Positions 269 through 15,780 of a stretch of 32,492 nt of DNA are shown here, piece by piece (position 1 is the stretch's first letter; each line of letters begins with the position of its first letter). Location: the sequence record SRR2962707_1907. One strand, written 5' to 3'. A program made the position numbers and the translations under genes. Under the pieces are notes generated by a model, which was not told the DNA's origin, made no database searches, and saw nothing but the letters and a program-made list of their open reading frames with translations.

Positions 269-1858
269 TTAGGCAGCCGTCAGTGCCTTAAGGCAGTCCT
301 CGACGATGCGTTCCGCGTGGTGGGCCGGGCCGTCGTGGAGGATGACGCGGTCCGGGCGGCAGACCACCAGGGTGCCCCGGGAGGGGCCGTTGGCCAGGCA
401 GCCGGAGAGGTCCTCGGCGAAGGGGGTGTCGGTGGCCGGGTGTTCGCCGCGCAGGCCGATGCGCAGGAAGGCGCCGCCGTGGGCTTGCCAGCGGGCCCGG
501 GTCGCGTCGTCCAGGGCTTCGCGGGGGTCGACGCCGAAGCCGATCAGGGTGAGGTGGTCGCCCAGCACGTCGTCGCTGGGGCGGATATGGCCGTCGTGGC
601 GGACCAGGCCCTGGGCCAGGGTGGCGCCTCGGGTGACGCCCTTGCGGCCGCGGCCCTTGATCAGAAAGCCTTGGCGGAAGCGGTTGGGCGGTTTGATTTC
701 CAGTTCTTCGAGCTGGCGGCGTAGCCGGGGCACCAGACGGCCCAGGCGCATGGCGCCGTGCACGGTGATGGCCGTGAAGCGGCTGCGGGGCATGACCAGG
801 CTGCCCATGAGCTTGGCCAGACCGATCATCTTCTTGGCGTGGGGGCGGCGTTCCTTGTCGTAGCTGTCGAGCAGGGCCGGGGCGGCCTGGCCGTGGACCA
901 CCCAGGCCAGTTTCCAGCCCAGGTTGGCCACGTCGCGCAGGCCGGCCACCAGGCCCTGGCCGACGAAGGGCGGGGTGATGTGGGCGGCGTCGCCGGCGAG
1001 AAACACCCGCCCCTGCTGGAAGGTGGTGCAGCAGCGGGCGTGGAAGCGGTACACCGCCTTGCGCTCGATCACCAGGCCTTCCGGGGCGACCCAGGGGGCC
1101 AGCAGTTCGGCGACTTTTTCGGGGCGCTCCATGTCCTCGTGGGTTTCGCCGGGCTGGAGCATGAATTCCCAGCGTTCCCGACCGCCCGGGGCGGGCATGT
1201 GCGGGGTGGGCCGCCGGGTGTCGCAGAGAAATTCCACGTGGTCGATGGCTTTGCCTTCGCGGGCCTTGGCGTCGACGATCAGCCAATCTTCGGGGTAGGT
1301 CTCGCCCTGGAAGTCCTGGCCGATCAGGCCACGGACGGTGGAGCTGGCGCCGTCCGCGCCCACCAGGTAGCACGCGCTGACCTCGTGGCGGCGGCCGTCG
1401 CTGTCCTTAAGGTGCGCCGTCACGCCGCTCTCAGTCTGGTCGAGGTCCACCAGCTCATACCCATCGCGGAAGGTCACGTCGGGATAAGCGGCCACCTGCC
1501 GCCGCAGGGCCCGCTCCAGGTCCGGCTGGTAGAACGTCACCAGCTTGGGGTGGCCATCGAGGGTGCCGGACGTGTTGGCCCGGCCGAACTGGCCCAGGTA
1601 GGGGCAGTGCATTTTCACTTCCGGGATGGCGATGCGTTCGAAGGCCTCTTCGCCCAGCCCGATCATTTGCAGGATGCGCAGGGCCTCGTTGTCCAGGGCG
1701 ATGGCGCGGGGCGCCAGCATCACCTCCGCCACCTTGTCCACCACCAGGGTGGTCACGCCGTAGCGGCCCAGTAGCGCGCAGAGCGCGGCGCCCACCGGCC
1801 CGTAGCCGATTACCAGCACGTCCGTGGTCCGGGGCAGAGCCTCTTTGTTGTTCGTCAT
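269..1858 (-). CDS. FAD-dependent aromatic monooxygenase, MhpA-like (3-(3-hydroxyphenyl)propionate hydroxylase family)
   Basis: Rossmann motif VIGYGPVG, LVGADGASS, and GDAAHITPPFVGQG-x-x-x-GLRD. Start set at ATG 1858, downstream of a GGTGAG RBS; alternatives are 1864 and 1873. Confidence 0.88.
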   Translation of the reverse strand: MTNNKEALPRTTDVLVIGYGPVGAALCALLGRYGVTTLVVDKVAEVMLAPRAIALDNEALRILQMIGLGEEAFERIAIPEVKMHCPYLGQFGRANTSGTLDGHPKLVTFYQPDLERALRRQVAAYPDVTFRDGYELVDLDQTESGVTAHLKDSDGRRHEVSACYLVGADGASSTVRGLIGQDFQGETYPEDWLIVDAKAREGKAIDHVEFLCDTRRPTPHMPAPGGRERWEFMLQPGETHEDMERPEKVAELLAPWVAPEGLVIERKAVYRFHARCCTTFQQGRVFLAGDAAHITPPFVGQGLVAGLRDVANLGWKLAWVVHGQAAPALLDSYDKERRPHAKKMIGLAKLMGSLVMPRSRFTAITVHGAMRLGRLVPRLRRQLEELEIKPPNRFRQGFLIKGRGRKGVTRGATLAQGLVRHDGHIRPSDDVLGDHLTLIGFGVDPREALDDATRARWQAHGGAFLRIGLRGEHPATDTPFAEDLSGCLANGPSRGTLVVCRPDRVILHDGPAHHAERIVEDCLKALTAA

Positions 1859-1942
1859 CGCCATCTCACCCATTCACAAAAAGACGGGCGGGCCGGCTGC
1901 GCGGCCGGTGATCCACCCTGGGAAGCGGTCTTTGTATCTTTT

Positions 1943-1978
1943 ATTGACATTTATTTCAATATTGAATCTAATCTCAAT
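1943..1978. promoter_or_regulatory. Tandem palindromic operators ATTGA-N8-TCAAT in the divergent promoter region (putative TetR sites)
   Basis: ATTGACATTTATTTCAAT (1943-1960) directly followed by ATTGAATCTAATCTCAAT (1961-1978), containing TTGACA at 1944-1949. The junction palindrome TCAATATTGA recurs upstream of the TetR gene at 237-246. Confidence 0.65.
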
Positions 1979-2032
1979 TATACGAGCCGGCAAGGGGCTC
2001 GCCATCAATGACAACAACGGAAGAGGTGCGTC

Positions 2033-2998
2033 ATGACCTTCGCGGCCCAACCCAAACGCGACCTGACGGCGGAGGAGATCCGCGCGTTTCAGGAAGACGG
2101 CGTGATCATGCTCAAGCAGGTTCTTGAGCCGAACTGGATGGCCATGGTGGAGGCCGGCATCGAACAGGCGCGCCAGGAAAGCTCGCTGCTGGGCCGGTTT
2201 ATGTCGCGCAAGGTCGAGGGCTATCAGATGGACATCTTTCTGTGGAAGCGCATCGATATCCTGCGTGACTTGATCTATTACAGCCCCTGCGCGCACCTGG
2301 CGCGGCAGTTGATGGGCGCCGAGGAAGTGCGCTTTTTCTACGACCAGATGTTCGTCAAGGAACCGGGCACCGACGCGCCCACGCCCTGGCATCAGGATTT
2401 GAGCTTCTGGCCGATACGCGGCGAGCAGATTTGTTCGTTCTGGATTCCCTGCGACCCGGTGAACCGGGACAACAGCGGCCTGCTCTACGTGCGCGGTTCT
2501 CACCGCTGGCCGCAGCGTTTTAAAGCTATTTCGCCGGACTATGTGGCCAGCATCATCGACGAGGACATGGAAGATATCCCCGACATCAACGCCAACCCGG
2601 ACCAGTACGATTTGGTCGATTGGGACATGGAGCCGGGGGACATTCTCGCTTTCCACCCGCTGACGCTGCACGGCTCCTACGGCAATGCGTCCCGCACCCG
2701 CCGCCGGCGCGCGCTGGCGCTGCGCTGGACCGGCGATGACGTGGTCTACGCGCCGTCCAGCAAACGGATGCCGATTCATTACAAGCACGAGTCGGTAGCG
2801 GGCGGGCCGCTGCGTGGTGCCGCCTTCCCGCGCATTCTGCCGGAGCAGGTGCCTCGCGAGCGGGCGGCCCGGTTGCAGGCGGAACGGGCCGACGCCGGCA
2901 AGCTGCTGGCCTCGGGCTGGCACAATGCGGTGGCGGCCGCGCGCCAGACCTTGCGCGCCAAGAAAACGCCCACGCCGAAACAAACCTGGACGAGGTAA
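2033..2998 (+). CDS. Phytanoyl-CoA dioxygenase (PhyH) family Fe(II)/2-oxoglutarate dioxygenase
   Basis: KEPG...TPWHQD (HxD), distal TLHGS histidine and RRALALRW; GAGGT RBS. Confidence 0.88.
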   Translation: MTFAAQPKRDLTAEEIRAFQEDGVIMLKQVLEPNWMAMVEAGIEQARQESSLLGRFMSRKVEGYQMDIFLWKRIDILRDLIYYSPCAHLARQLMGAEEVRFFYDQMFVKEPGTDAPTPWHQDLSFWPIRGEQICSFWIPCDPVNRDNSGLLYVRGSHRWPQRFKAISPDYVASIIDEDMEDIPDINANPDQYDLVDWDMEPGDILAFHPLTLHGSYGNASRTRRRRALALRWTGDDVVYAPSSKRMPIHYKHESVAGGPLRGAAFPRILPEQVPRERAARLQAERADAGKLLASGWHNAVAAARQTLRAKKTPTPKQTWTR

Positions 2999-3003
2999 GC
3001 CCC

Positions 3004-4077
3004 ATGGCCGAACTGACCACCCCGCAACCGGCGCGGCATCCGTCGCCGACGGTGAAGGCGCGCAAGCTGGCCTACCTGCTGTTCGAGCGGCCCGATCTGG
3101 AGAAAACCGAGGGCTTCCTCAATGACTTTGGCCTGCACACGGTGTCGCGTTCGTCAGAAGCGCTCTACCTGCGTGGCACCGCCCCCGAGCCGTTCTGCTA
3201 CCGCGTGGCCAAGGGGGACGACGCGGGCTTTGTCGGGATCGGTTTCGAGGTGGGCACGCGCCAGGAGCTGGAGCGGCTCAGCCAACTGCCGGACGCATCA
3301 CCGATCCAGCCGGCGGACTACCCCGGCGGCGGCGAGCGGGTGCGCCTGACCGACCCGTCCGGCTTCACGGTGGAGGCGATCCACGGGCAAACGCCGGCGG
3401 CACCCCTGCCCCACCGGGATGCGCTACCGATCAACTTCCCCGAGCAACAGACCCGTGTGAATGACACCCAGCGCCCGCCGGTGGCGCCGCCGGAGGTGAT
3501 GCGTCTCGGCCATGTGGTGTTGGAGGTGGCGGACTTTCAGGCTACGTGCGGCTGGTACACGCAGCACTTCGGCCTGATTCCCAGTGACGTGCAGGTGCTG
3601 CCGGACGGTTCGCCGGCGGTGGTATTCCTGCGCCTGGATCTGGGCGACACGCCGGCGGATCACCACACCCTCGCCATGGCCCAGGGTTTCATGCCGCTGT
3701 ACAGCCACAGCGCCTATGAGGTGGTCGACACCGACGCGGTGGGCATGGGCCAGCGTCTGCTCAAGGAGCGCGGCTGGAAACACGCCTGGGGCATCGGCCG
3801 GCACGTGCTCGGCAGCCAGATCTTCGATTACTGGGAGGACCCCTGGGCGGCCAAGCATGAGCACTACTGCGATGGTGACGTGTTCACCGCCGAGCGGCCC
3901 ATGGGCGTGCACCCGGTGAGCCGGGAAGCCATGGCCCAGTGGGGCCAGCCCATGCCGGCCAGCTTCACCAAACCCAAACTCACGCCGGCTGCACTCCGCG
4001 AGCTGACGCGTAATCTGCGCCGCAGCCCGGACCTGTCGGTGAAAAAACTGATCACCCTCGCCAAGATATTTGGCTGA
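3004..4077 (+). CDS. VOC/glyoxalase-family extradiol ring-cleavage dioxygenase
   Basis: Two VOC modules; LGHVVL, DHHTL, HSAYE, WGIGRHVLGSQIFDYWEDP...EHYCDGD. Confidence 0.85.
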   Translation: MAELTTPQPARHPSPTVKARKLAYLLFERPDLEKTEGFLNDFGLHTVSRSSEALYLRGTAPEPFCYRVAKGDDAGFVGIGFEVGTRQELERLSQLPDASPIQPADYPGGGERVRLTDPSGFTVEAIHGQTPAAPLPHRDALPINFPEQQTRVNDTQRPPVAPPEVMRLGHVVLEVADFQATCGWYTQHFGLIPSDVQVLPDGSPAVVFLRLDLGDTPADHHTLAMAQGFMPLYSHSAYEVVDTDAVGMGQRLLKERGWKHAWGIGRHVLGSQIFDYWEDPWAAKHEHYCDGDVFTAERPMGVHPVSREAMAQWGQPMPASFTKPKLTPAALRELTRNLRRSPDLSVKKLITLAKIFG

Positions 4078-4091
4078 TAGGAGAAAAGAAT

Positions 4092-5048
4092 ATGGCACTG
4101 CACCTTGTCCGCTTCCAACACCAGGACCAGCCCCGTTGGGGCCTGCTGGAAGGCACGACTATCAAGCCGCTGAATCTGCCCTGCACCACCACCGCCGCGC
4201 TGATTGAACAGAGCCATGAGGCGATCCGGGCGGCGGCCGGCGATGGCGCCGAGCTGGCGCTGGAGAGCGCCAGCCTGTTGTCACCGATCACCGGCGAGGC
4301 CAAGGTGCTCTGCCAGGGCGCCAATTATCGCCAGCACATGATCGACTCCGGCATGAACCCGGACGATAAAAGCTTCAACATGTTCTTCACCAAATCCCCG
4401 GCGTCGATCACCGGCCCCGCCGGCGAGATCGTCAAGCCCGCCCACGTGCAGCTGCTGGATTACGAGGTCGAACTGACCCTGGTGCTGGGCAAGCAAACAG
4501 ACGGGCCGGTGGAGGTCACCGCCAACAACCTGCACGACTTCGTGGCGGGCATCTGCATTGGCAACGACGTCTCCGCCCGGGACGTGCAGATTCCCCAGAT
4601 GCAGTTTCACAAGGGCAAGAGCTACCGCACCTTCTGCCCGCTGGGGCCGGTGCTGTGCCTGCTGGAAAAAAACGAGATGCACTACCTGGACGAGATGCAG
4701 CTGAAGCTGACGGTGAACGGCGAAACCCGGCAGCAGGACAGCACCGCGAACCTGGTGTTCAAACCGGCCGAGACCCTCAGCGAGTATTCCCTGATTCACG
4801 ATTTCGCCCCGGGCGACGTGCTGATGACGGGCACCCCCGCCGGCTGCGCCCTGGGCCTGCCCAGCCCGGCGGTGACCAAGGTGGCCGCCTTGCTGCCCGA
4901 ATCAAAAAAATGGCAGCTTTTCATTAAGTCACAAAAGCGCCGCCAGCAGTATCTTCAGGCCGGGGATGTGGTGGAATCCACCATCACCAGCCGCGATCAG
5001 CAGCTGGACCTGGGTAAGCAACGTCATACCATTAAAGACGGGGCCTGA
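4092..5048 (+). CDS. Fumarylacetoacetate hydrolase family protein
   Basis: GANY, LDYEVEL, NDVSARD, GKS...PLGP and GDVLMTGTPAG motifs. Confidence 0.92.
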   Translation: MALHLVRFQHQDQPRWGLLEGTTIKPLNLPCTTTAALIEQSHEAIRAAAGDGAELALESASLLSPITGEAKVLCQGANYRQHMIDSGMNPDDKSFNMFFTKSPASITGPAGEIVKPAHVQLLDYEVELTLVLGKQTDGPVEVTANNLHDFVAGICIGNDVSARDVQIPQMQFHKGKSYRTFCPLGPVLCLLEKNEMHYLDEMQLKLTVNGETRQQDSTANLVFKPAETLSEYSLIHDFAPGDVLMTGTPAGCALGLPSPAVTKVAALLPESKKWQLFIKSQKRRQQYLQAGDVVESTITSRDQQLDLGKQRHTIKDGA

Positions 5049-5099
5049 GCAGGCCCCGTTCACGGCCACCTCAGCACGCAGCGACCGCAAGGAGAAAAG

Positions 5100-6134
5100 A
5101 TGAAGGCTTTTACCATCGTCGATCAGAGCACCGGCACGCTGCGCCCCAACGAGATGCCAGCGCCGCCGGCCCCAGCCGAGGACCAGGTGCAGCTTGAGCT
5201 GATCGGCACCTCCATCAACCCCATCGATCCACTGGTGGCCAAGGGCTATGGCGCGCCGCTGCTCAACACCAAACGGCAAGTGCCCCTGATCCCGGGCCGG
5301 GACGCGGTGGCCCGGGTGGTCGAGGTGGGCAAAGGCGTCACCGACCTGCGGCCGGGGCAGCGCGTGCTGGTGGCCGCCTCGCCACGCACCGGCGGCACCT
5401 ATGCGGCGGTCTTTAATCTGCCAAGAAAATGCGTGGCGCCCATCGAGGACAGCCTCAGCGACGCCACCGCCGCCGGCCTGGGCTACGCCGGGCTCACCGC
5501 CCTGCAGGCGCTGGCCGCCGCCGGCCTCTCCGCCGACAACGCCCGGGGCAAGACCCTGTGCATCAACGGCGCCAGCGGCGGCGTGGGCTCCATCGCCCTG
5601 GTGGTGGCTCGGCGCTGGGGCGCGACCATCACCGCCGTCGCCTCCCAACGCAACCAGGACTGGGTACGGCGACTGGGCGCCGACCAGACCGTGGACTATC
5701 GGGACGCAGCGGCCATGGCCGCCATCGACGCGGACATCATCCTCAACTTCGCCGCCCCCGGCGATAACCACCGGCAAGACCCGCTGCTGGACCTCCTGCG
5801 CCGCCGCGACACCCCCGGCCGCGCCTACGTGAACACCACCAATCCGGTGCTCAGCTCGGTTACCGACAAGGGCGTGGTGGGCGGTCTTGCCACCAGCGGT
5901 GGGATCTACGCCAGGAAACGCCTGGCGGCACGCCGGGCGGGCATCCACTATCGCTGGGTGCTGTTCAAGGAAAACGCCGAACAATTGGCGTATCTGGCCA
6001 AGGTGTTCGCCGACCTGGGCACGCCGACCATCGTCAGCGACAGCTGGCCGCTTGATGCGCTGCCCGAGGCGTTCAACGATCCCAAGGGGCCGCCGTCTCC
6101 GGGGAAGGGGGTTTTTATGGTCAATGCGCCATGA
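5100..6134 (+). CDS. MDR-superfamily NAD(P)H-dependent oxidoreductase (quinone/enoyl reductase-like)
   Basis: SINPID, PGRD, GLTALQAL, INGASGGVG; no obvious catalytic Zn cysteine set; AAGGAG RBS. Confidence 0.85.
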   Translation: MKAFTIVDQSTGTLRPNEMPAPPAPAEDQVQLELIGTSINPIDPLVAKGYGAPLLNTKRQVPLIPGRDAVARVVEVGKGVTDLRPGQRVLVAASPRTGGTYAAVFNLPRKCVAPIEDSLSDATAAGLGYAGLTALQALAAAGLSADNARGKTLCINGASGGVGSIALVVARRWGATITAVASQRNQDWVRRLGADQTVDYRDAAAMAAIDADIILNFAAPGDNHRQDPLLDLLRRRDTPGRAYVNTTNPVLSSVTDKGVVGGLATSGGIYARKRLAARRAGIHYRWVLFKENAEQLAYLAKVFADLGTPTIVSDSWPLDALPEAFNDPKGPPSPGKGVFMVNAP

Positions 6135-6326
6135 GCCGGCTTGGTAACGCGGGGGAAAAAAATCAGCAGAGTGAGAGCGGTCAAACCTTACTCGTTGAGG
6201 CTGTGGTGACCGATTGCGCGCCGGACCTGCCGGCTGCCCCCCTGGCGAACTATCCGGATTTTCCGGATAACTGAATCCTCGGCCAGCTCCCCCTCTTTGA
6301 AGACGTTCTTCACTGTAATCAGCCAC

Positions 6327-6364
6327 ACTGACCATATTGACAGTACATCACACGAAGGTACACT
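6327..6364 (+). promoter_or_regulatory. Sigma70 promoter overlapped by a LexA (SOS) box
   Basis: TTGACA (6337-6342)-N16-TACACT (6359-6364). ACTG-ACCATATTGA-CAGT (6327-6344) fits CTG-N10-CAG and covers the -35. Confidence 0.7.
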
Positions 6365-6398
6365 TAGTTAAGGAGCCTAGAAACTCCAACAGGCGGGC

Positions 6399-6431
6399 AA
6401 AGCCGCACCCCGGAAGCATTGCGGCTTTTTT
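6399..6431 (+). terminator. Intrinsic terminator/attenuator in the symE leader
   Basis: AAAGCCGCA...TGCGGCTTTTTT stem with U tract, just after the first antisense target site. Confidence 0.65.
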
Positions 6432-6454
6432 GTGCCCGAAATCCGGGACGTAAT

Positions 6455-6536
6455 GGCCGGGAGGTCCGGCGAATACAACACCTGCTTGCAGGAAATAGTC
6501 GGAGCAGTACCTGTTGCTGTTTCTAGCCTCCCGACC
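6455..6536 (+). ncRNA. C4/CI-like (P1 C4, P4 CI type) antisense RNA
   Basis: Closing stem GGCCGGGAGG/CCTCCCGACC. Contains CCTGTTG (6510-6516) and GTTTCTAG (6519-6526), complementary to CTAGAAAC/CAACAGG upstream (6377-6393) and CTAGAAA/CAACAGG downstream (6553-6571). Confidence 0.7.
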
Positions 6537-6580
6537 GCCCTATTTACGCAACCTAGAAATTGCACAACAGGAGCAAGACC

Positions 6581-6781
6581 ATGAAACAACGCAAACTGAA
6601 AGTCCGCAAAGGCCACCGGGACTACACCCTGAAGAGCAAGCCTTGTAGCGGCAACCCGATTATTCCTTTTCTTCTTCTCAAAGGTACCTGGCTGGAACAG
6701 GCGGGATTCACCATTGATACGCCCCTGTCCGTGACCGTGGAGGATGGGCGGCTTTCCATTGTTCGGGATCGTTGTCGGTGA
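6581..6781 (+). CDS. symE: SymE-family type I toxin (66 aa)
   Basis: P-x-L-x-L-K-G-x-W-L-E-Q-A-G-F-x-I-x-x-P-L-x-V-x-V-E-x-G-x-L signature; CAGGAG RBS before ATG 6581. Confidence 0.85.
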   Translation: MKQRKLKVRKGHRDYTLKSKPCSGNPIIPFLLLKGTWLEQAGFTIDTPLSVTVEDGRLSIVRDRCR

Positions 6782-6861
6782 GGGGCTGGCCCCAGCTTTG
6801 CGCCGGGGCTTCTCGCGTCAGCGGGGTATGCAAAGGTAAGACCTAGCCCTCATTGCTTACA

Positions 6862-6936
6862 CTAGGATGCTTATATCTCGGCATTGCCCACCTCCTCTTG
6901 TTAGGAGAAGGTGTCCACTAAAGCGGGGGAACTACA
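6862..6936 (-). mobile_element. Truncated IS3-family left end (IRL plus first codons of orfA)
   Basis: Minus strand reads TGTAGTTCCCCCGCTTTAGTGGACACC (5'-TG, IS3-like IR), then a GAGGAGG RBS and ATG at 6884 (MPRYKHP), and the frame closes shortly after. It begins exactly where the attC left arm ends. Confidence 0.55.
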
Positions 6937-6962
6937 TTGTCCGGTGCAATGCATTGTTATGC
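6937..6962 (-). mobile_element. attC site of cassette 3, left arm only (truncated)
   Basis: Minus strand GCATAAC-AATGC-ATTGCACCGGACAA. The inverse core GCATAAC is the exact complement of the cassette-start core GTTATGC (10760-10754). No right arm follows. Confidence 0.7.
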
Positions 6963-6987
6963 CTTCTTGGCTGACATCTCGTGCAGA

Positions 6988-8931
6988 TCATGTGCTTTGC
7001 CACTCTTCTGGAACCAGGGCGGGCGGCTTTGTCCAAGGCCCTTCGACCAACGATTTTTGAAACCAATGGTCACGAAGGTTCGCATGCTCGGTGATGATCA
7101 GTTGGAACCCGGGAACCTCATCCTGAGTGAACTTTAGCAATAACTCGAACAGACGACGCACTGCATCTAGGTCGGCGTCAGCCTCCGTCTTCTGTATTGA
7201 TCCATCGGCGTCGTTATAGACCTGCTCAGATGGAAAATAGACCTGGGTAGGCTGATCGATCAGCAGGAATCGAGGAATTGGCCGGTTATTCTTTGCGGCG
7301 AAAAGATGTAGCGCAAGCAGTGCCGATAGGTGGTAGGCCAGATGATTTTCGCCGCCGCCAGTCCGCGCCATCGGAACTGGGCGGTCTGGGCGATCGAAAA
7401 TTATAGTCAACTGTGGCAGGTTTAACCGAGCGGGGTAAGGACTGAACTCGGCGTTGAACTGTTGGACATAACGTGACAGATTTACGGAGATAGTGTTGAG
7501 AATCGAGGCTAAGCGCTCGTTGCTGTCATCCGCGCCGATCTGGTCTTCAAGCTCCTGAACCTTGTTATTAAGACGACGATTCTGTGCTTCCAACCGAGCA
7601 AGTTCTTCGTTCGGCAGAAGCGTCTCCAGAAACAGGCTGATGCGACCTACCACGCGTGCTGCCGCATTATTACGGGAGCCCATTTGAGAAATGACCTCGT
7701 TAGCCGAGATCGCCGCAGATAGCTCTGCTTCCTTCTGCTTTATGGCGCCCGCTATCTCGTCCACTTTGCTCGTCAGTTCGGAAAGGTAGGATTCGAGCTT
7801 TGGACGCTGGCCGGTAGCGATGCGCAATTCACTGTCAAGCGACTTCAACTCGCCGAGCAAGGCTGCCGCGATTGGAGACTCCATCGCTAGGTTTCGCTCA
7901 CTGAACGGCCATTGCCATTCGCCGCTTTCTGGGTTTTTTGGCAAAGCCTTGATCGACGCCAGTCGATCCAATTGTTCGGCTGCCTCATTCTCGTAGCCAC
8001 CCGCCCGCTTGGCAAACTGTCGCGCCGCGTCGATCCTGGATTGGGTGTCGCGTCTATCCTGACGCAACTGACTTAGTTCTTCTTCCAAGAACGAAATCCG
8101 GCTGCCGTCGTCGTCGGGTATCATTTCGGGCTTCCACGACAGCGCGGACCTCAGCGTCTCAATGATCCCGGTTCCATCCGTGCCCTCCCCGCCTCTAATG
8201 ACACCGACGCTTCTGGCTTCCGAATAGAGGCCAATGGCTTGCTCGTGCGATGTGTCGATAGCATTGCGCGCCTGTTCCAGCTGCTTGCTGTTAATCCTAA
8301 GATCCCGCTGGGCGGTGCGTAGACGAGATTCCAGTTCATAGCGGTCGCCAGAAGAGACGCCGAGCAGGATCGGCAGAGTGTCGCGGATTGCCTGAGGCTG
8401 GTACGGCTCGTTCTGGCGATAGAAAAGCTGATCCTTGTTGGCTATCAGGCCTTGCTTCTGGAACAGATAGTAGAACGTGTGCTTGACGTTCGCGTCGTAA
8501 CTGTCGCGGCTGTGTTCAAGCTCAACATCTGTGCGGTTCTCGGGAATACCTAGCAGACGCGACAGCAATTCCACAACGCCATCGTCATCAACGTTGGCCA
8601 CCAAATCCTTGAAAGCAGGCGTCTGCAACTGAGTACCACGTCGGAGCATCGCCATGCTGCAACTGGCTCCTGCGCTAGGTGGGCTCGGCTTAGCCACTAA
8701 AACCTGCTCTTTCTCGAACTGATAGACCACGGCGAACCATGCCACTTTGTCGCGAATTACGCCTTCGGGAACATTGAATGAGGAGCGGCCCATGCAATAC
8801 TCAATGATCTCGGAGAGTGCGGACTTGCCGGTAGACGAGTGTCCGGTGATGACATTAAGCCCTTCGACCCTAAACCGCAGATCCCGGCGTTGACCATCGT
8901 GGCTGTAGATATGGATAGAGCTAATCTTCAT
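6988..8931 (-). CDS. lmuB: Lamassu/ABC-three-component SMC-like ATPase (LmuB, DUF3732-type), 647 aa
   Basis: Walker A ITGHSSTGKS, Q-loop FQKQ, long coiled coils, signature TGGGEN, Walker B FLLIDQP, ITEH. ATG 8931 overlaps the upstream stop (ATGA). Confidence 0.85.
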   Translation of the reverse strand: MKISSIHIYSHDGQRRDLRFRVEGLNVITGHSSTGKSALSEIIEYCMGRSSFNVPEGVIRDKVAWFAVVYQFEKEQVLVAKPSPPSAGASCSMAMLRRGTQLQTPAFKDLVANVDDDGVVELLSRLLGIPENRTDVELEHSRDSYDANVKHTFYYLFQKQGLIANKDQLFYRQNEPYQPQAIRDTLPILLGVSSGDRYELESRLRTAQRDLRINSKQLEQARNAIDTSHEQAIGLYSEARSVGVIRGGEGTDGTGIIETLRSALSWKPEMIPDDDGSRISFLEEELSQLRQDRRDTQSRIDAARQFAKRAGGYENEAAEQLDRLASIKALPKNPESGEWQWPFSERNLAMESPIAAALLGELKSLDSELRIATGQRPKLESYLSELTSKVDEIAGAIKQKEAELSAAISANEVISQMGSRNNAAARVVGRISLFLETLLPNEELARLEAQNRRLNNKVQELEDQIGADDSNERLASILNTISVNLSRYVQQFNAEFSPYPARLNLPQLTIIFDRPDRPVPMARTGGGENHLAYHLSALLALHLFAAKNNRPIPRFLLIDQPTQVYFPSEQVYNDADGSIQKTEADADLDAVRRLFELLLKFTQDEVPGFQLIITEHANLRDHWFQKSLVEGPWTKPPALVPEEWQST

Positions 8932-9416
8932 GGACGAATCCCAAAAGTCGTGTAAACGGTCACCGGATCGGAAATGCGTGCGAATTCCCGCCCCAAGATC
9001 CGTGCCGCTTTCTGGCAAGAAACGGTCTCGTCAGTTCCCCGCACGGTCTTGCGCACCTTGTTGGGCACGGTCTGAATGCGACCGTCATCCCCAACTAAAA
9101 TGCACCCCCGCTCCATGAGCAAACCGAAACCCTCGAATACATAGGGCAGCATCTGCGTCACTCGGTCAGCGAACCCCAGTGTAATCTGCTGATTCTTTTC
9201 CGTGATCTTGAGGAGATAACTACGCGGACTGCCTGCAAGGATTTCTCGTGAATCCTTGTGTAGGCACAATGGCAGCACCAGCAGAGAAAGAGAGAAAGGC
9301 ATCGCGCGTGTAGCTTGTTCCTCGTAACTAGAGAGGGCACGATACAGTACCAAACCGCAGAAGGCTGGGTTGAACAGATTCCGAATCTCGACAGGGCGCA
9401 GGTTCCATTGCTTCAC
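8928..9416 (-). CDS. lmuC: ABC-three-component middle component (LmuC)
   Basis: 162 aa with LFNPAF and LVLPL-x-LH-x-x-SR motifs. Lies between effector and ATPase and is translationally coupled on both sides (GTGA, ATGA). Confidence 0.8.
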   Translation of the reverse strand: MKQWNLRPVEIRNLFNPAFCGLVLYRALSSYEEQATRAMPFSLSLLVLPLCLHKDSREILAGSPRSYLLKITEKNQQITLGFADRVTQMLPYVFEGFGLLMERGCILVGDDGRIQTVPNKVRKTVRGTDETVSCQKAARILGREFARISDPVTVYTTFGIRP

Positions 9417-10636
9417 TGGGCCACTCCAAGCACTTTGCCAAGACGATCAAGAAATCTGGGGTGCCAGTAGACCCTAGGTTCGGGCGTGGCATCGGCCAAA
9501 ATATGGAAGCTTCCGCGGAGGACATAAGGCTCAGCAACCCGGGCGCGAATGCGTAAGGATTCGAGCTTTCCTGTCTCGAACTCCGCCCAGTTATAGAGGG
9601 TTGCGCCGGCTTCACGAAGCGCGTTCTCGGCGCTATCATCTGCCAACTTTTCGAAGACGACATCCTTATAGCGATTCCACTCGTCAGCAAGACGATCTTC
9701 GTATTCCTCAACTTCTCCTGACACCAGCAGGTTCTCGCGTGCCCAAGCGGATCGCTGCTCGAACGCGCGATAGTAATCTAGTACGGCGCTTCTGATCCGG
9801 CTGGAGGAGAGGCCGATCTCGCGGAGCTGCGCCACGAACAAGCGAGGATCGTCCTCAATATCAATCTCGCCTACGGGCTGTTTTCCCCGGAAAGTGATAG
9901 GAAGGTTGTCCGCTTTATATTCCTCGGCAAAGTTGGAGAGCTTGTCCGATACCTCGTAACCGAAAATTCCTTCCGGCCGTGCGTGTGTCAACTGCTTTAT
10001 CACGGCGTCAGTCCACCAGCCTTCCAGTCGCTCGAAAACGAACTCGCGGTGCTCACGCCGGATGCTTCGCATATGCTTATCCCTGATGATCGACGGGATA
10101 TCATCAATACGTGGGCTACCGTCTAGGATCAGAATACGTTCGAGAAAATCCTGCTTCTCTGGCTCACTCAGCTCATTGAACGACACAGCGATAGTCGCGA
10201 TGAGTTGCGACTTTGAATTGGCGAGCGAGGCATTCGCTAGCTCAGTTAGTGGCGCCAAATCGCTTGATGGGGCGGGCTGGTCAGGGAGAAGACGTGCGAG
10301 AAACGAGCCTGCACTCACGGTACCCGTAGTAAACAGGAAGAACTGCAGGCTCGATGCGGAACGACCATCACGCTTGTAACGCTCCAGCCAGATGTTCACC
10401 GACTTCCAAAAGTCCGTGGCCAGATCGGTCACCCTATCGCCGACCGCCTTATGCTTGAGTGATGCGAGGGATTTTCCGCCGTCACCGTCGATGAAATCTA
10501 GGTCGTCGTCCTTTTCCAAGAAGACGGCGGTCTCCTCCGATAATTGCAATATATGGAGCAGGGCGAGACGCGCCTGGTATATGTACCCCAAGCCTTGTTC
10601 GCTGGCTGAATATTTGTCGGTTTTTTTTGTCGTCAT
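9413..10636 (-). CDS. lmuA: Lamassu effector (LmuA): Cap4-like PD-(D/E)xK nuclease fused to an ABC-3C C-terminal domain
   Basis: N-terminal A-x-x-x-x-LGY-x-YQ, E-x-x-DD, SLKHK, DFWKS-x-x-IW; C-terminal RGSFHILAD...VYWHP typical of ABC-3C C-terminal domains. Confidence 0.78.
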   Translation of the reverse strand: MTTKKTDKYSASEQGLGYIYQARLALLHILQLSEETAVFLEKDDDLDFIDGDGGKSLASLKHKAVGDRVTDLATDFWKSVNIWLERYKRDGRSASSLQFFLFTTGTVSAGSFLARLLPDQPAPSSDLAPLTELANASLANSKSQLIATIAVSFNELSEPEKQDFLERILILDGSPRIDDIPSIIRDKHMRSIRREHREFVFERLEGWWTDAVIKQLTHARPEGIFGYEVSDKLSNFAEEYKADNLPITFRGKQPVGEIDIEDDPRLFVAQLREIGLSSSRIRSAVLDYYRAFEQRSAWARENLLVSGEVEEYEDRLADEWNRYKDVVFEKLADDSAENALREAGATLYNWAEFETGKLESLRIRARVAEPYVLRGSFHILADATPEPRVYWHPRFLDRLGKVLGVAQ

Positions 10637-10753
10637 TGGTTCAACCGATACCTAATTATATTTTCAGGGTCGCAGTCTACTCAGCGTCAAGGTCGGCGAC
10701 CATCCTTATAATGGCCTTGATCCATACTTCACTGGTTGCGACTACTTCCTGCG

Positions 10754-10837
10754 GCATAACGCCGCCAGCACGTGCGGCTTTGTAATGGAGGCTCAGCCGC
10801 AGTGAAAAAGCCGTCGCTGAGCCTGCGCTTGTTAAAA
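10754..10837 (-). mobile_element. attC site of cassette 2 (84 bp, apparently intact)
   Basis: Minus strand TTTTAAC-AAGCG-CAGGCTCAGCGACGGCTTT...AAAGCCGCACGTGCTG-GCGGC-GTTATGC: imperfect hairpin with extrahelical bases; the TAA of the upstream gene lies in the inverse core. Confidence 0.8.
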
Positions 10838-11329
10838 TATGGCGCCCGCCGCCGCACCTATTACCGATACAACAGCCGGGTGCCCCAGCAATTTACGGAG
10901 CATGCCTTTAGCCTCTTCTTTCTGCGCAGCAGGAAGGTCAGCAGAGTCAATCCTCTTTACCAGCGCTTCAAAAGAATTCACGATATTTTGGGTATTGTAG
11001 TCACCGACTTGTACTGACTGCGCGCCATGAATATTGATGGTATGACCCGGCTTCTGCATCTCTGACTGCCCACCCTTACGGTATTTAATCTGGTAATGCG
11101 GCCCCATTCCGGCCACGCCTCGTTTGTAAAAGGTAGCCTCTGTCACGATGCAGCGCTCATCTTTGCCACTGGGAAGCTCACGAAGAATGACATCGCCCTC
11201 TTCTACATCTGCCTTCTCATCAAGCAGGAAAATCGTTTGACCGGGGAACGAGGCTTTGTATGGGCCGAGAATCGACCCGTCTTTCTTCTCAATCCTTGCT
11301 TCATCCTCGAACTTTTTCAGGAGCCTCAT
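10832..11329 (-). CDS. Hypothetical cassette protein with RHIM-like motif (165 aa)
   Basis: AAGGA RBS; the ORF fills the cassette; contains INIHGAQSVQVGDYNTQNI. Confidence 0.8.
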   Translation of the reverse strand: MRLLKKFEDEARIEKKDGSILGPYKASFPGQTIFLLDEKADVEEGDVILRELPSGKDERCIVTEATFYKRGVAGMGPHYQIKYRKGGQSEMQKPGHTINIHGAQSVQVGDYNTQNIVNSFEALVKRIDSADLPAAQKEEAKGMLRKLLGHPAVVSVIGAAAGAIF

Positions 11330-11338
11330 AGTTTTTCC

Positions 11339-11390
11339 TTTTAACGCCCGCCTAAGCCGCCGAAGGTCGGCCTGGAGGTGCTTTTCATGT
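11339..11390 (-). mobile_element. attC site of cassette 1 (52 bp, degenerate inverse core)
   Basis: Minus strand ACATGAA-AAGCACCTCCAGGCCGACCTTCGGCGGCTTAGGCGGGC-GTTAAAA, resembling short aadA/aadB-type attC arms. The inverse core ACATGAA differs at 2 nt from the expected ACATAAC. Confidence 0.72.
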
Positions 11391-11978
11391 AGATTTTGCG
11401 GGGCGATCCCACATGTGGCTTACAGCAGACAGCTGCCCCGGTTCTTGCAAGTCCTCAACGGAAAGCCCCTTCACAAAATATCTATCCGTAAGTTCTCGAA
11501 TAGTCTCGAGACGCTCGCCAGGGTTAATTATCTCGTATACGACCGACGTAAATAAGCGCTGCAGCTGTTCCGCTTTCTCATTCAGGCTCGAACTGCTTGG
11601 CTTGTGGTGAAGATTGTATGATGCCACAAGGAAGTCTAACCCTATATTCCTGTACCCTCGATAGGCGGGCGGCTTATCTACCCCATGCTCACCGGGATTG
11701 ATATTTGGAAAGAAAAATCTTCCCTTTTCGATGTATGCGGAGAGCTCGATCAGCAAAGACTGCCTTTCATCCTCATACCCAGAAAATTGTCTAAGTCTCA
11801 GCTCAGTAAGAATTTCGATGACCGAATGATGCCACTGCAAGAGCTGATTAATGTAATCATTGGCAATAGTGAACTTGACGTGACGCCTGTCTCTTACATA
11901 AAGGACAGCCAAAATTCCAGAAATCACCAAAGATACGCATGCTAGCAAATTCGAAAACTGATCTGACCCTATATCCAT
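11385..11978 (-). CDS. Hypothetical cassette protein with an N-terminal transmembrane helix (197 aa)
   Basis: Hydrophobic LLACVSLVISGILAVLYV followed by basic RDRRH; GAGAGGGGG RBS; AT-rich; the stop lies in the attC inverse core. Confidence 0.8.
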   Translation of the reverse strand: MDIGSDQFSNLLACVSLVISGILAVLYVRDRRHVKFTIANDYINQLLQWHHSVIEILTELRLRQFSGYEDERQSLLIELSAYIEKGRFFFPNINPGEHGVDKPPAYRGYRNIGLDFLVASYNLHHKPSSSSLNEKAEQLQRLFTSVVYEIINPGERLETIRELTDRYFVKGLSVEDLQEPGQLSAVSHMWDRPAKST

Positions 11979-12003
11979 AGCCCCCTCTCACCTTCCTTGA
12001 TCT

Positions 12004-12022
12004 ACATAACAGGAATTAGGAC
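12004..12022 (-). mobile_element. Putative attI-like simple site heading the cassette array
   Basis: Minus strand GTCCTAA-TTCCT-GTTATGT; a core site with no attC hairpin upstream; layout resembles attI1 (CCCTAAA-ACAAA-GTT). Confidence 0.5.
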
Positions 12023-12174
12023 GCCAGCTCGAATATCCAATGAACGCGCCGGCGTCATATCCCTTCTTTTGGCTCCCCATGACTTGAAATAAAACCAGAA
12101 AACTCAGCCGCTTACAAACTCCGCCGCACGCAGCATTCTGATATCTTGACCAACCATATCGTGCCCAGAACACA

Positions 12175-12210
12175 AAAAGGCCGCCGACGCTCCCGCGCCG
12201 GCGGCCTTTT
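12175..12210 (-). terminator. Rho-independent terminator of guaA (bidirectional form)
   Basis: AAAAGGCCGCCG-N12-CGGCGGCCTTTT, 31 bp after the guaA stop. Confidence 0.85.
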
Positions 12211-12241
12211 AAGTAAGCCCTTACTTTCAGGCTAGATCAGA

Positions 12242-13813
12242 TCATTCCCATTCAATCGTAGCCGGCGGCTTGGACGAGATGTCGTAGGTCACCCGGCTAA
12301 TTCCGGGAATCTCATTAATGATCCGGCTGGAGACCTTCTCCAGAAACTCATAGGGCAGGTGCGCCCAACGCGCGGTCATGAAGTCGATGGTCTCGACGGC
12401 GCGCAGGGCCACGACGTATTCGTAGCGGCGGGCGTCGCCGACGACGCCGACGGATTTGACCGGGAGGAAGACGGCGAAGGCCTGGCTGGTTTTGTGGTAG
12501 AGGCCGGCGGCTTTGAGTTCTTCGATAAAGATGTGGTCCGCCAGGCGCAGGGTATCAGCGTATTCTTTCTTTACTTCGCCGAGGATGCGCACGCCCAGGC
12601 CGGGGCCGGGGAAGGGGTGGCGGTAGACCATGTCGTAGGGCAGGCCAAGTTCCAGTCCAATCTTGCGCACTTCATCTTTGAACAGTTCGCGCAGGGGCTC
12701 GACGAGCTTGAGCTTCATGTCTTCGGGGAGGCCGCCCACGTTGTGGTGGGATTTGATCACGTGGGCGCCACCGGTTTTGGAGGCGGCGGATTCGATCACG
12801 TCCGGGTAGATGGTGCCCTGGGCCAGCCAGTTGGCGTTGGTGAGTTTGCCGGCTTCGGTGTCGAAGATGTCGATGAAGGTGTTGCCGATGATTTTGCGTT
12901 TCTTCTCCGGATCGGCTTCGCCGGCCAGGCGGGAGAGGAAGTGGTCTTCGGCGTCGACGCGGATGACGCGCACGCCCATGTGGTCGGCGAACATTTCCAT
13001 CACCTGGTCGCCTTCCTGGTGGCGCAGCAGGCCGTTGTCGACGAACACACAGGTGAGCTGGTCGCCGATCGCCTTATGGAGTAGCGCGGCGACCACGGAG
13101 GAGTCAACACCACCGGAGAGGCCGAGGATGACGTCGTCGGTGCCGACCTGTTCTTTGATGGTGGTGATGGCGTCTTCGATGATGTTGGCCGGGGTCCACA
13201 GGGCTTCACAGCCGCACAGTTCGCGGATGAAGCGTTCCAGCAGGCGGCCGCCTTGCAGGGTGTGGGTGACTTCCGGGTGGAACTGGACGCCGTAGAAGCG
13301 TTTTTCGTCATTGGCCATGCCGGCGATGGGGCAGCTGTCGGTGGTGGCGGTGACGACGAAGTCTTCCGGTACCGCGCCGACGCGGTCACCGTGGCTCATC
13401 CACACGTCGAGGTATTCCTGGCCGCCTTCTTCGTGGTCGACGATGCCGTCCAGCAGGGCGTTGCTTTCGGCTTTGGCGACGCGGGCGTAGCCGAATTCGT
13501 GTTTTTCACCGGCCACCACGGCGCCGCCCAGTTGCTCGGCCATGGTTTGCATGCCGTAGCAGATGCCCAGCACCGGCACGCCCAGTTCGAACACCGCTTG
13601 CGGCGCGCGCGGGGTTTCGGCGGCGGTGACGGATTCCGGGCCGCCGGAGAGGATGATGCCTTTGGGGTTGAATTCGGCGATGTCCTCGGCGCTGATGTCG
13701 AAGGCGCGGATTTCGCAGTAGACGCCGATTTCGCGCACGCGGCGGGCGATCAGTTGGGTGTACTGGGAGCCGAAGTCGAGGATCAGGAGGCGCTGGGCAT
13801 GGATGTCTTGCAT
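12242..13813 (-). CDS. guaA: GMP synthase (glutamine-hydrolysing)
   Basis: [46 protein letters not shown]. Confidence 0.99.
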
Positions 13814-13829
13814 GGTCCGTTTCCGGTTA

Positions 13830-14016
13830 GGGCCGGCGGTTCGGGGCCGGCTTTAAATGCAAAGGCCGGCGGTTGGGCCGGCCAGTTCAAATTCGGTTGA
13901 GCGTCGTCGGGGCGCCGTGCTTGCCATCCCTGGCGCAACGCCCCCTCTCCAGAGCGCCCTGCCCGGCCGTCCATGGCCGGGCGCGAGCCGCGCTGCGAAG
14001 CAGTGCTTCGGTCGCG
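13830..14016. repeat. REP/MITE-like palindromic element in the guaB-guaA spacer
   Basis: GGCCGGCGGTT occurs twice; hairpins GCCATCCCTGGC, GCCCGGCCGTCCATGGCCGGGC and CGAAGCAGTGCTTCG. Confidence 0.45.
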
Positions 14017-14018
14017 TC

Positions 14019-15590
<1,572 letters not shown>

Positions 15591-15780
15591 TTAAATTAAG
15601 CGGGGCATTATACGGTATGGCGGTCCTTCGCGGCAATCGGGGATCGCGGTCCGTCCGCCGCGGGCGAATGCACAATAATTGACAGATTCAGGGATTGGGA
15701 AGATTCGCCTGCGGGCAGGCTCCCACATCCATGGGCCGCGACGCTTGCGGCGGCGGCGGGGGGCGCTTACATTGCGCGGC

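Follow-up and report, generated by a model that had tools for sequence, protein, structure and literature searches.

Does the DNA downstream of guaA in sequence record SRR2962707_1907 hold an integron cassette array that has no integrase of its own and, if so, are its cassettes still mobile? The whole stretch analysed, 32,492 nucleotides and hereafter the window, had been described from its letters alone as carrying, on the minus strand behind guaA, three cassettes of the kind known as CALIN (attC sites grouped together with no integron-integrase), either a relic or an array serviced in trans, and used as a defence locus. Comparison with related genomes upholds the array through the homology of its head to known attI sites, the family membership of its attC sites and three cassette boundaries confirmed independently. 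In our reading, which we consider very probable, positions ~6860-12127 (minus strand) form a sedentary chromosomal integron array without an integrase, a CALIN that retains its attI; cassettes would have been inserted in trans at G|TT, the recombination sites are decaying and the cassettes are most likely fixed. The three units are real but do not complete the array, which continues with a reversed symE/sRNA-Xcc1 unit (6320-6843) and the remnant of a rhuM gene. Genomes of relatives are given here as G numbers and their loci as L numbers. The features on which the argument rests are the following.

12242-13813, minus strand: guaA (GMP synthase), a conserved gene that lies upstream of the array (Pfam GATase 3.6e-46, GMP_synt_C 1.1e-43; 96% DNA identity to the nearest genome, G001).
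12175-12210, minus strand: intrinsic terminator hairpin of guaA, with a 16-bp stem and a T run, conserved in 15 aligned copies.
12004-12127, minus strand: attI as assigned by homology to sites adjacent to intI (core 12004-12063).
11345-12009, minus strand: cassette 1, 665 bp, starting at the attI crossover, with the open reading frame ORF197 (11385-11978).
11339-11390, minus strand: attC1, 52 nt, decayed (homology to a short attC family; covariance model R1, described below, E 0.022).
10760-11344, minus strand: cassette 2, 585 bp, with ORF165 (10832-11329); a homologue in G019 begins at the same GTTAAAA.
10754-10837, minus strand: attC2, 84 nt, probably a hybrid, with R'' TTTTAAC and R' GTTATGC (84-nt family; model R1, E 3.4e-19).
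6937-10759, minus strand: cassette 3, at least 3823 bp, a predicted type II Lamassu / ABC-3C system (PADLOC, Pfam, match to L110).
6937-6962, minus strand: truncated attC3, its 5' half only (R'' GCATAAC, the spacer, and L'' as far as the loop); an intact counterpart is found in L110.

All six heptamers on which the preliminary description was built are present on the minus strand: the cores GTTATGT (12010-12004), GTTAAAA (11345-11339) and GTTATGC (10760-10754), and the inverse cores ACATGAA (11390-11384), TTTTAAC (10837-10831) and GCATAAC (6962-6956). The lengths first given for cassettes 1 and 2 are correct, the stop codons of ORF197 (TGA, 11387-11385) and ORF165 (TAA, 10834-10832) do lie within inverse cores, and the five genes of the three units all have the same orientation. 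The GC content is 0.49-0.56 across 6200-12200, against ~0.65 in the flanks. As described in the relevant part of Cury et al. 2016 (PMC4889954), the integron integrase IntI recombines the folded bottom strand of the attC of a circular cassette with attI at G|TT.

The strongest evidence comes from the head of the array. The nearest genome, G001, which is 100% complete, matches positions 12008-14500 of the window at 96% and nothing to the left of them, so that homology ends at the second T of GTTATGT. At the same point it has GTTGGGC, a GNAT gene and then a 56-nt attC, whose inverse core GCCCAAC complements the start of that cassette. The unit of ~220 bp from the guaA stop codon to GTT, terminator included, occurs in several copies per genome in 17 of the 19 genomes of the genus. 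When 16 copies of the upstream site are aligned, ten of them keep CCTGTT, and divergence sets in immediately 3' of it, into GTTRRRY-like cores; the other six copies have GTG or GTC (three), ATT (one), a cut by an insertion sequence (IS; one) or no core (one). In two genomes of the genus (G015 and G011), ~120 bp adjoining the start of an intI fragment are homologous to 12007-12127 and end in CCT|GTTAGGG, which is followed by a cassette. Five genomes of the sister genus (G043, G022, G038, G021 and G037) carry a homologue of the attI core, 54-57 bp long and 89-93% identical, ~195 bp from a full-length, divergently oriented intI, which brings the intI-adjacent homologues to seven genomes. Because of this homology to sites next to intI, we assign 12004-12127 as the attI of the chromosomal integron of this bacterial family, joined here to the guaA terminator in place of intI. 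The crossover point lies between G 12010 and T 12009, and the DNA fold of the site has a z score of -2.45. The array head had originally been taken as the first G/TT core; the core is indeed there, but as part of what appears to be a true attI.

A conserved block upstream of the crossover (TTGTAA at 12117-12112, 17 nt, TTTTAT at 12094-12089) is found in all aligned attI copies, including the intI-adjacent one. We infer that it might serve as the cassette promoter (Pc); a consensus promoter scan of the window did not call it. The first cassette at orthologous guaA attI sites differs between species, being ORF197 in the window, the GNAT gene in G001 and ORF165 in G019, which implies either that cassettes were inserted in trans after attI had been fused to guaA or that whole arrays were exchanged via conserved flanks.

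The statement that no intI fits between the array head and the guaA terminator holds: only ~165 bp separate them, and a tblastn search of the whole window with the IntI of G008 gave no match (best E 2.1), its positive controls being found at 97% and 76% identity. No integrase domain was detected in the window ORFs scanned (269-15599). The position next to attI that intI occupies in a complete integron is taken up by guaA and its terminator. A search of G001 with the integron-integrase model TIGR02249 returned nothing, and among the 19 genomes of the genus this model finds one gene of 340 amino acids (G008) and two N-terminal fragments (G015, G011). The family as a whole has intI above the cut-off in 32 of 70 genomes, the sister genus in 21 of 24 and the window's genus, as traces, in 3 of 19, a difference that dates the decay. 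The G008 gene, the sole full-length copy in the genus, is 96% identical to the G015 fragment; in L050 (G008:C2, ~2440-2520) an IS3-type element, another than the one whose stump lies in the window, is inserted near codon 3 and cuts the gene off from the DNA upstream.

Cassette 1 carries ORF197, which has an N-terminal hydrophobic stretch, has no match in Pfam, PADLOC or NCBIfam and falls only into Atlas clusters annotated as hypothetical. Its attC1 has a body with 87-98% identity to a family of short repeats in the sister genus (g2), four members of which read xxxTAAC-AAG...CTGAGG...GTTRRRY. The window copy has TGAA for TAAC and, in L', CTTAGG for CTGAGG, which amounts to three substitutions at recognition or pairing positions; to judge from these relatives, its R'' ACATGAA (instead of ACATAAC) is a decayed R'' that has lost AAC.

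The product of the second cassette, ORF165, matches no Pfam, PADLOC or NCBIfam family above cut-off. Its residues ~95-115 hold a weak RHIM-like motif (Pfam E 0.0072, below the cut-off), followed by a C-terminal hydrophobic tail, and RHIM is present in 17% of the members of its Atlas cluster. In G019 an ORF165 cassette (147 of 165 residues identical, 89%) lies directly at the guaA attI, without cassette 1, and starts with the same GTTAAAA; the left boundary of cassette 2 is therefore at 11345. No match in a family-wide DNA search with window positions 10700-12060 spans the other boundary, 10760-10754.

The body of attC2 belongs to a widespread repeat of ~84 nt, copies of which often lie ~1 kb apart within one genome. 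Nineteen distinct copies were aligned at full length, and RNAalifold predicts for them one long imperfect hairpin, in which TAAC pairs with GTTA and bulges are confined to the R''-L'' arm. Nine of its 24 pairs show compensatory changes (columns 11-75, for example, are GC in 10 copies and CG in 7), so that at the level of the family the repeat has the architecture of an attC. From 17 of these copies, leaving out the window copy and a degenerate one of G003, we built the covariance model R1. Its first match in the window is attC2 (10754-10837; 77.5 bits, E 3.4e-19), and its second match, 11339-11390, is exactly attC1 as first described, with a marginal score of 17.1 bits (E 0.022). Nine attCs of differing families, set side by side with MAFFT, aligned too badly at the centre for a general attC model, and the family-specific one was built instead. 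The window attC2 is the sole copy of the 84-nt family in which pairs 11-75 and 12-74 are both broken. Over its first ~17 nt it is similar to another attC, the 69-nt one behind ORF165 in G019, and the rest is the family body; attC2 may thus have arisen by fusion of two attCs after loss of the cassette between them.

The complementarity between a cassette's first bases and its R'', which had been put forward as the footprint of circular cassettes, recurs in relatives, where five cassettes have an R'' that complements their own first bases exactly and three have one that is a single base off; we read it in the same way.

The third cassette contains lmuA (9413-10636), lmuC (8928-9416) and lmuB (6988-8931) in this order on the minus strand. 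PADLOC identifies all three products (LmuA 1e-70, LmuC 1.7e-14, LmuB 1.9e-131), and Pfam assigns them, above cut-offs, the CTD7 (LmuA), MC3 (LmuC) and DUF3732 (LmuB) families. Relatives with solved structures are 9hqu_A (3.2e-49) and 9hqu_C (1.5e-09), and also 9ny5. By these matches cassette 3 is a complete type II Lamassu / ABC-3C system, lmuA-lmuC-lmuB. Gene order and domains (a CTD7 effector, MC3, and an SMC-like DUF3732 ATPase) are as in Lamassu type II / ABC-3C (DdmABC-like) systems, the difference being that for the N-terminal effector domain of LmuA no Pfam family reaches E 0.01. In Lamassu, the SMC-like LmuB together with LmuC restrains the LmuA effector until foreign DNA is sensed. 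By analogy with its family, the system would act against phages or plasmids. Of the cassettes in this locus, first described as one of defence, this is the only recognised defence system, ORF197 and ORF165 matching no known family.

Relatives of LmuB with 56-95% identity were found at 80 loci in many phyla. Among the matches listed, these loci share only the coding region with the window (~10621-6999), with one exception: L110, titled Vreelandella zhaodongensis, matches positions 10762-6937 at 93% DNA identity. The Lamassu cassette of L110 is preceded by a different attC, which ends in GTTATGC, and followed by an intact attC of 48 nt, which ends in GTTATAG. Since the match is bounded by two attCs, GTTATGC at 10760 is the true start, and GCATAAC at 6962 the R'', of a Lamassu cassette of ~3.85 kb. 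The attC originally proposed for cassette 3 is thus real in its R'', but only its 5' half is left: homology to L110 stops at 6937, and 6936-6862 are the left end of an IS3-family element, a stump of 76 nt with 96% identity to a full copy of 1280 bp in G004 (L094 895-2174; orfA and an rve-type orfB). It is this stump, cutting in at 6936, that deprives attC3 of its R'. The attC3 family is also found in G024, where it is split by a full copy of the IS. A repeat of ~100 nt at 6862-6962 was tried as a long attC in either orientation and ruled out, because the alignment is that of the IS3-family left end and the start of orfA.

In this IS3-family element, whose orfA starts with MPRYKHP (L094 895-2174, L095 1728-3007, L077-L088), the 5' half of an attC precedes the left end in 15 of 15 aligned copies from several genera, made up of R'', AA, ~12 nt, mostly CGGAC, and 2 nt. 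In G024 a full copy has entered the loop of a 48-nt attC, with 3 bp duplicated. The element thus seems, from these junctions, to target attC loops. Such targeting is known from the IS1111-attC group, and the element here belongs to a different family, IS3.

Taken together, the breakpoints seen in other genomes coincide with the G|TT cores of the window, as had been predicted for a cassette array, and each of the three was seen in an independent context: 12010 in G001 and the 16-copy alignment, 11345 in G019 and 10760 in L110. The course of events may have been as follows. An attI became fused behind the guaA terminator, and an IntI supplied from elsewhere put circular cassettes in at its G|TT, namely ORF197, ORF165 and the 3.8-kb Lamassu operon, which the reversed symE/sRNA-Xcc1 toxin unit follows. 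With intI decaying in the genus, the recombination sites would have decayed too, attC1 by loss of AAC, attC2 by fusion and attC3 by the IS cut, and the cassettes would now most likely be fixed genes, expressed either from the promoter-like block of attI or from promoters within the cassettes.

A number of observations weigh against this reading. The strand of the 5.1-kb island holds six exact pairs of GTTRNNN and its inverse 300-5000 nt apart, and first-order Markov shuffles give 2.95 ± 1.97, with six or more in 57 of 500; a chained core/inverse-core pair is present in 51 of 500 such shuffles. The heptamer pattern by itself is within chance, and comparative evidence alone gives it meaning. The folding of the attC1 and attC2 bottom strands, which had been suggested as a check, did not bear them out, being about as stable as shuffles (z -0.52 and -0.09). 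Model R1 is specific to one attC family, the 84-nt one, and is not the general IntegronFinder model; it also matches 737-821, within a coding region, at E 0.025, probably spuriously, which makes the attC1 score marginal. A homologue of ORF197 in G021 (71% DNA identity) stands outside any attC context, no DNA homologue of the Lamassu cassette was found in the 70 family genomes (four candidates scored per genome), and the end of this cassette, whose attC3 has no R', is taken from L110. The intI search of the window's own genome covers 32.5 kb, and an intI elsewhere in that genome is possible. Finally, G|TT breakpoints would look identical if arrays had been swapped by homologous recombination via the guaA-attI arm. 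A naive scan for AAC...GTT hairpins proved unusable, giving 33 minus-strand matches in the GC-rich window and missing both real sites, and an Rfam scan of the window, Rfam having no attC family, gave no attC-type match, its sole relevant match being sRNA-Xcc1. The sequence of the window alone could not decide the matter, because pair statistics, folds and hairpin scan all failed to discriminate.

The best-surviving alternative, which we regard as rather unlikely, is that IntI assembled the arrays in other strains and that homologous recombination via the conserved flanks, guaA-attI on one side and core genes on the other, brought them in as whole blocks, instead of cassettes being added one at a time in this lineage. 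Long conserved arms are indeed present on both sides, intI is largely lost from the genus, and the Lamassu cassette with parts of its flanking attCs is 93% identical to a copy in another genus. Relatives, moreover, have duplicated guaA-end and tetR-end modules (see below), which site-specific recombination leaves unexplained. Arrival as a block is, however, at odds with the position of cassette 2, which leads the array in G019 but comes second in the window, the order that insertion of cassette 1 at attI would produce, and with the attCs upstream of Lamassu, which differ between L110 and the window and so indicate that this cassette moved on its own.

Cassettes that are still active, being excised or reshuffled in trans by an intact IntI from elsewhere in the genome or from a mobile integron, are in our estimation improbable. 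An IntI is available in principle, given the 340-residue gene kept in one genome of the genus and the 32 family genomes with full intI, and the search of the window's own genome was confined to the window; the differing first cassettes at orthologous guaA attI sites, furthermore, speak for insertion in trans after the fusion of attI to guaA. All three attCs are structurally damaged, though, one by loss of AAC from R'', one by two broken family-conserved pairs and one by the IS cut, the only full-length intI of the genus is itself interrupted, and the complete nearest genome is without intI. Between the two possibilities first offered, a relic therefore fits better than an array serviced in trans, because every attC in the window is damaged.

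That the locus is an ordinary defence island which arrived by some other route, for example a guaA-targeting tyrosine recombinase, its heptamers being coincidental, is extremely improbable: the heptamer statistics would allow it, and other insertions do occur at the guaA 3' end (guaA-end copies after unrelated AT-rich DNA in G001, G008 and G010), but the homology of attI to intI-adjacent sites, the attC family membership with covariation and a model match of E 3e-19, the three boundaries in independent contexts and the lack of a phage-integrase domain in the 147 ORFs of four relatives' arrays all stand against it.

The sedentary array favoured here can now be set beside known systems. With the CALINs of Cury et al. 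2016 (PMC4889954), as far as the part of that paper used here describes them, it shares two or more attC sites of one orientation that are separated by less than 4 kb (spacings ~0.5 kb and 3.8 kb), the lack of an intI nearby and cassettes that are promoterless and co-oriented; integrase loss, rearrangements and IS activity are proposed there as origins of CALINs. Unlike the usual CALIN, the window array has a head that can be identified as an attI, whereas IntegronFinder annotates attI for classes 1-3 only, and this attI is fused to the terminator of a housekeeping gene and has several module copies in relatives. A close parallel is the integron of Xanthomonas (PMC12444791 = 10.1101/2025.06.18.660453), for which the portion of the report consulted describes symE with sRNA-Xcc1 as the most widespread integron cassette, oriented against the array. 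Both are ancestral platforms at the level of a family, with intI lost or truncated in many lineages and arrays at conserved positions, and both have a reversed symE unit, whose RNA in the window is sRNA-Xcc1-like, and IS elements within arrays. The window differs, by the same portion of the report, in the bacterial family (the closest named record being Vreelandella) and in the anchor gene, guaA instead of ilvD; only a small share of the Xanthomonas cassettes is classed as defence, whereas the arrays of the window's relatives abound in genes for defence and for toxin-antitoxin systems.

Integron cassettes that carry defence systems have been reported by Kieffer et al. (10.1101/2024.07.02.601719), who describe the Lamassu-like brc128 and cite Darracq et al. 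on the Vibrio cholerae superintegron. As there, a single cassette of the window, which has an attC of its own, holds an entire anti-phage system. The Lamassu of brc128 is of type 1, has two genes and is found on mobile integrons, whereas the system of the window has three genes, is of type II, measures ~3.85 kb, lies in a chromosomal integrase-less array and is known from sequence. Already in print, then, are CALINs, chromosomal integrons that sit decayed at conserved loci, defence systems in cassette form and the symE/sRNA-Xcc1 cassette in reverse orientation. A CALIN headed by a recognisable attI goes beyond the parts of the cited work considered here, as do the joining of this attI to the terminator of a housekeeping gene and its multiplication; literature on orphan attI sites was not specifically searched.

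How a CALIN arose is usually hard to tell, common as such clusters are, since attI sites can be recognised only in integron classes 1-3. Identification of an attI by homology indicates that an integrase-less array began as, or served as, a true insertion platform. The attI, three attC families and a related IntI together provide a concrete set of sites for tests of recombination in trans. A complete three-gene Lamassu is added to the defence systems that travel as single integron cassettes, and the region downstream of guaA stands out in this genus as a hot spot for defence that integron recombination has built up.

In relatives, the unit of terminator and attI (~220 bp) recurs 3-15 kb apart downstream of guaA (L041-L049, L006, L007, L091), with at least four copies on one contig of G008. 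The internal copies are of two types: the first carries the last 12-14 nt of guaA, and the second is a module of 850-950 bp, in which the 3' two-thirds of a TetR-family gene are joined to a terminator and attI. G008 has three copies of this module and G003 two, and it occurs in G006 and G019 as well. Duplication of these modules is not explained by classic IntI recombination. Positions 1-749 of the window are 94% identical to the region upstream of a tetR-terminator-attI module in G010 (L044), and for this reason a second attI head with its own cassettes probably lies ~0.5-0.75 kb beyond the left end of the window.

The arrays of relatives downstream of guaA (L041-L049, in G003, G010, G008 and G006) contain many defence and toxin-antitoxin genes (OLD/TOPRIM, SIR2, AAA_15 with HNH, HigBA, HipA, restriction-modification, E1/E2/JAB of the ubiquitin-like type, Fic, RES and ParE); a SIR2 protein of 1294 residues as a cassette of 3.9 kb, an Mrr-helicase and methylases with Vsr were also noted. 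As a tentative proposal, which is about as likely to fail as to hold and perhaps slightly more so, the family may run a distributed, many-headed integron, in which integrase-less modules of terminator, promoter-like block and attI stand behind housekeeping and regulatory genes (guaA, TetR-family), each heading an array rich in defence and toxin genes that would be filled in trans by one distant, or transient and horizontally supplied, IntI; the modules would be duplicated by a process outside classic recombination.

The 3' end of guaA is also a hot spot for another kind of insertion, and no integrase was seen there. In G001 (L007 8140-8370, G001:C6), G010 (L044 15736-15976) and G008 (L047 14892-15140), a guaA-end attI copy follows unrelated AT-rich DNA, and in G010 this copy and the one behind guaA bracket an inserted island. 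An insertion of 5.7 kb in G003 (L041 4229-10046) carries a YobI-like ATPase and has duplicated the final ~660 nt of guaA. The last attC of the first array of G003 (L042 8210-8293), a member of the 84-nt family, has an R' without GTT and lies 67 nt from an ADH-like core gene, a further sign of decay at array ends.

The far end of the array in the window comprises the following features.

6862-6936, minus strand: IS3-family stump, with the left inverted repeat and the first orfA codons (96% identity to the full copy in G004).
6581-6781, plus strand: symE-like type I toxin gene, reversed with respect to the array (Pfam SymE_toxin 7e-13).
6455-6544, plus strand: sRNA-Xcc1-like RNA upstream of symE (Rfam RF02221, 52 bits, E 2.6e-07).
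6197-6310, minus strand: 5'-deleted rhuM-fic remnant; the full gene follows the symE unit in relatives.

The unit that comes after the IS stump (6320-6843) consists of a terminator, symE, the sRNA-Xcc1-like RNA and a promoter-like site (6337-6364, TTGACA-16-TACACT); it is conserved across the genus, at several copies per genome. The symE-like product scores 48.9 bits against SymE_toxin, with a cut-off of 29, and 6.3e-05, below the cut-off, against NCBIfam SymE; the RNA is one bit below the gathering score of 53. The composite of IS stump and symE is also found in G011, G008 and G007, with differing break points in orfA. A rhuM-fic gene stands divergent from the symE unit in G004, G008, G011, G007 and G014. 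In the window its remnant (~6197-6310) is followed by an ADH-like core gene, which ends at 6134, and G014 shares the junction with the ADH flank. An attC belonging to the symE/sRNA-Xcc1 unit was not found in the window. A 148-nt inverted repeat at 6372-6531 was tried as such and rejected, because the conserved unit extends past it to the promoter at 6337-6364. The idea that the sRNA-Xcc1-like RNA is a guide RNA of the IS110/IS1111 type was dropped as well, the IS being of the IS3 family with an rve-type orfB and the RNA lying on the opposite strand. The two arms of the inverted repeat (6372-6393 and 6510-6531; 22 nt, 86% complementary, 116 nt apart) are conserved in all aligned copies and take in the beginning of the symE/sRNA-Xcc1 transcript together with part of the RNA; more likely, the repeat folds in the leader of this transcript, where it may control symE.

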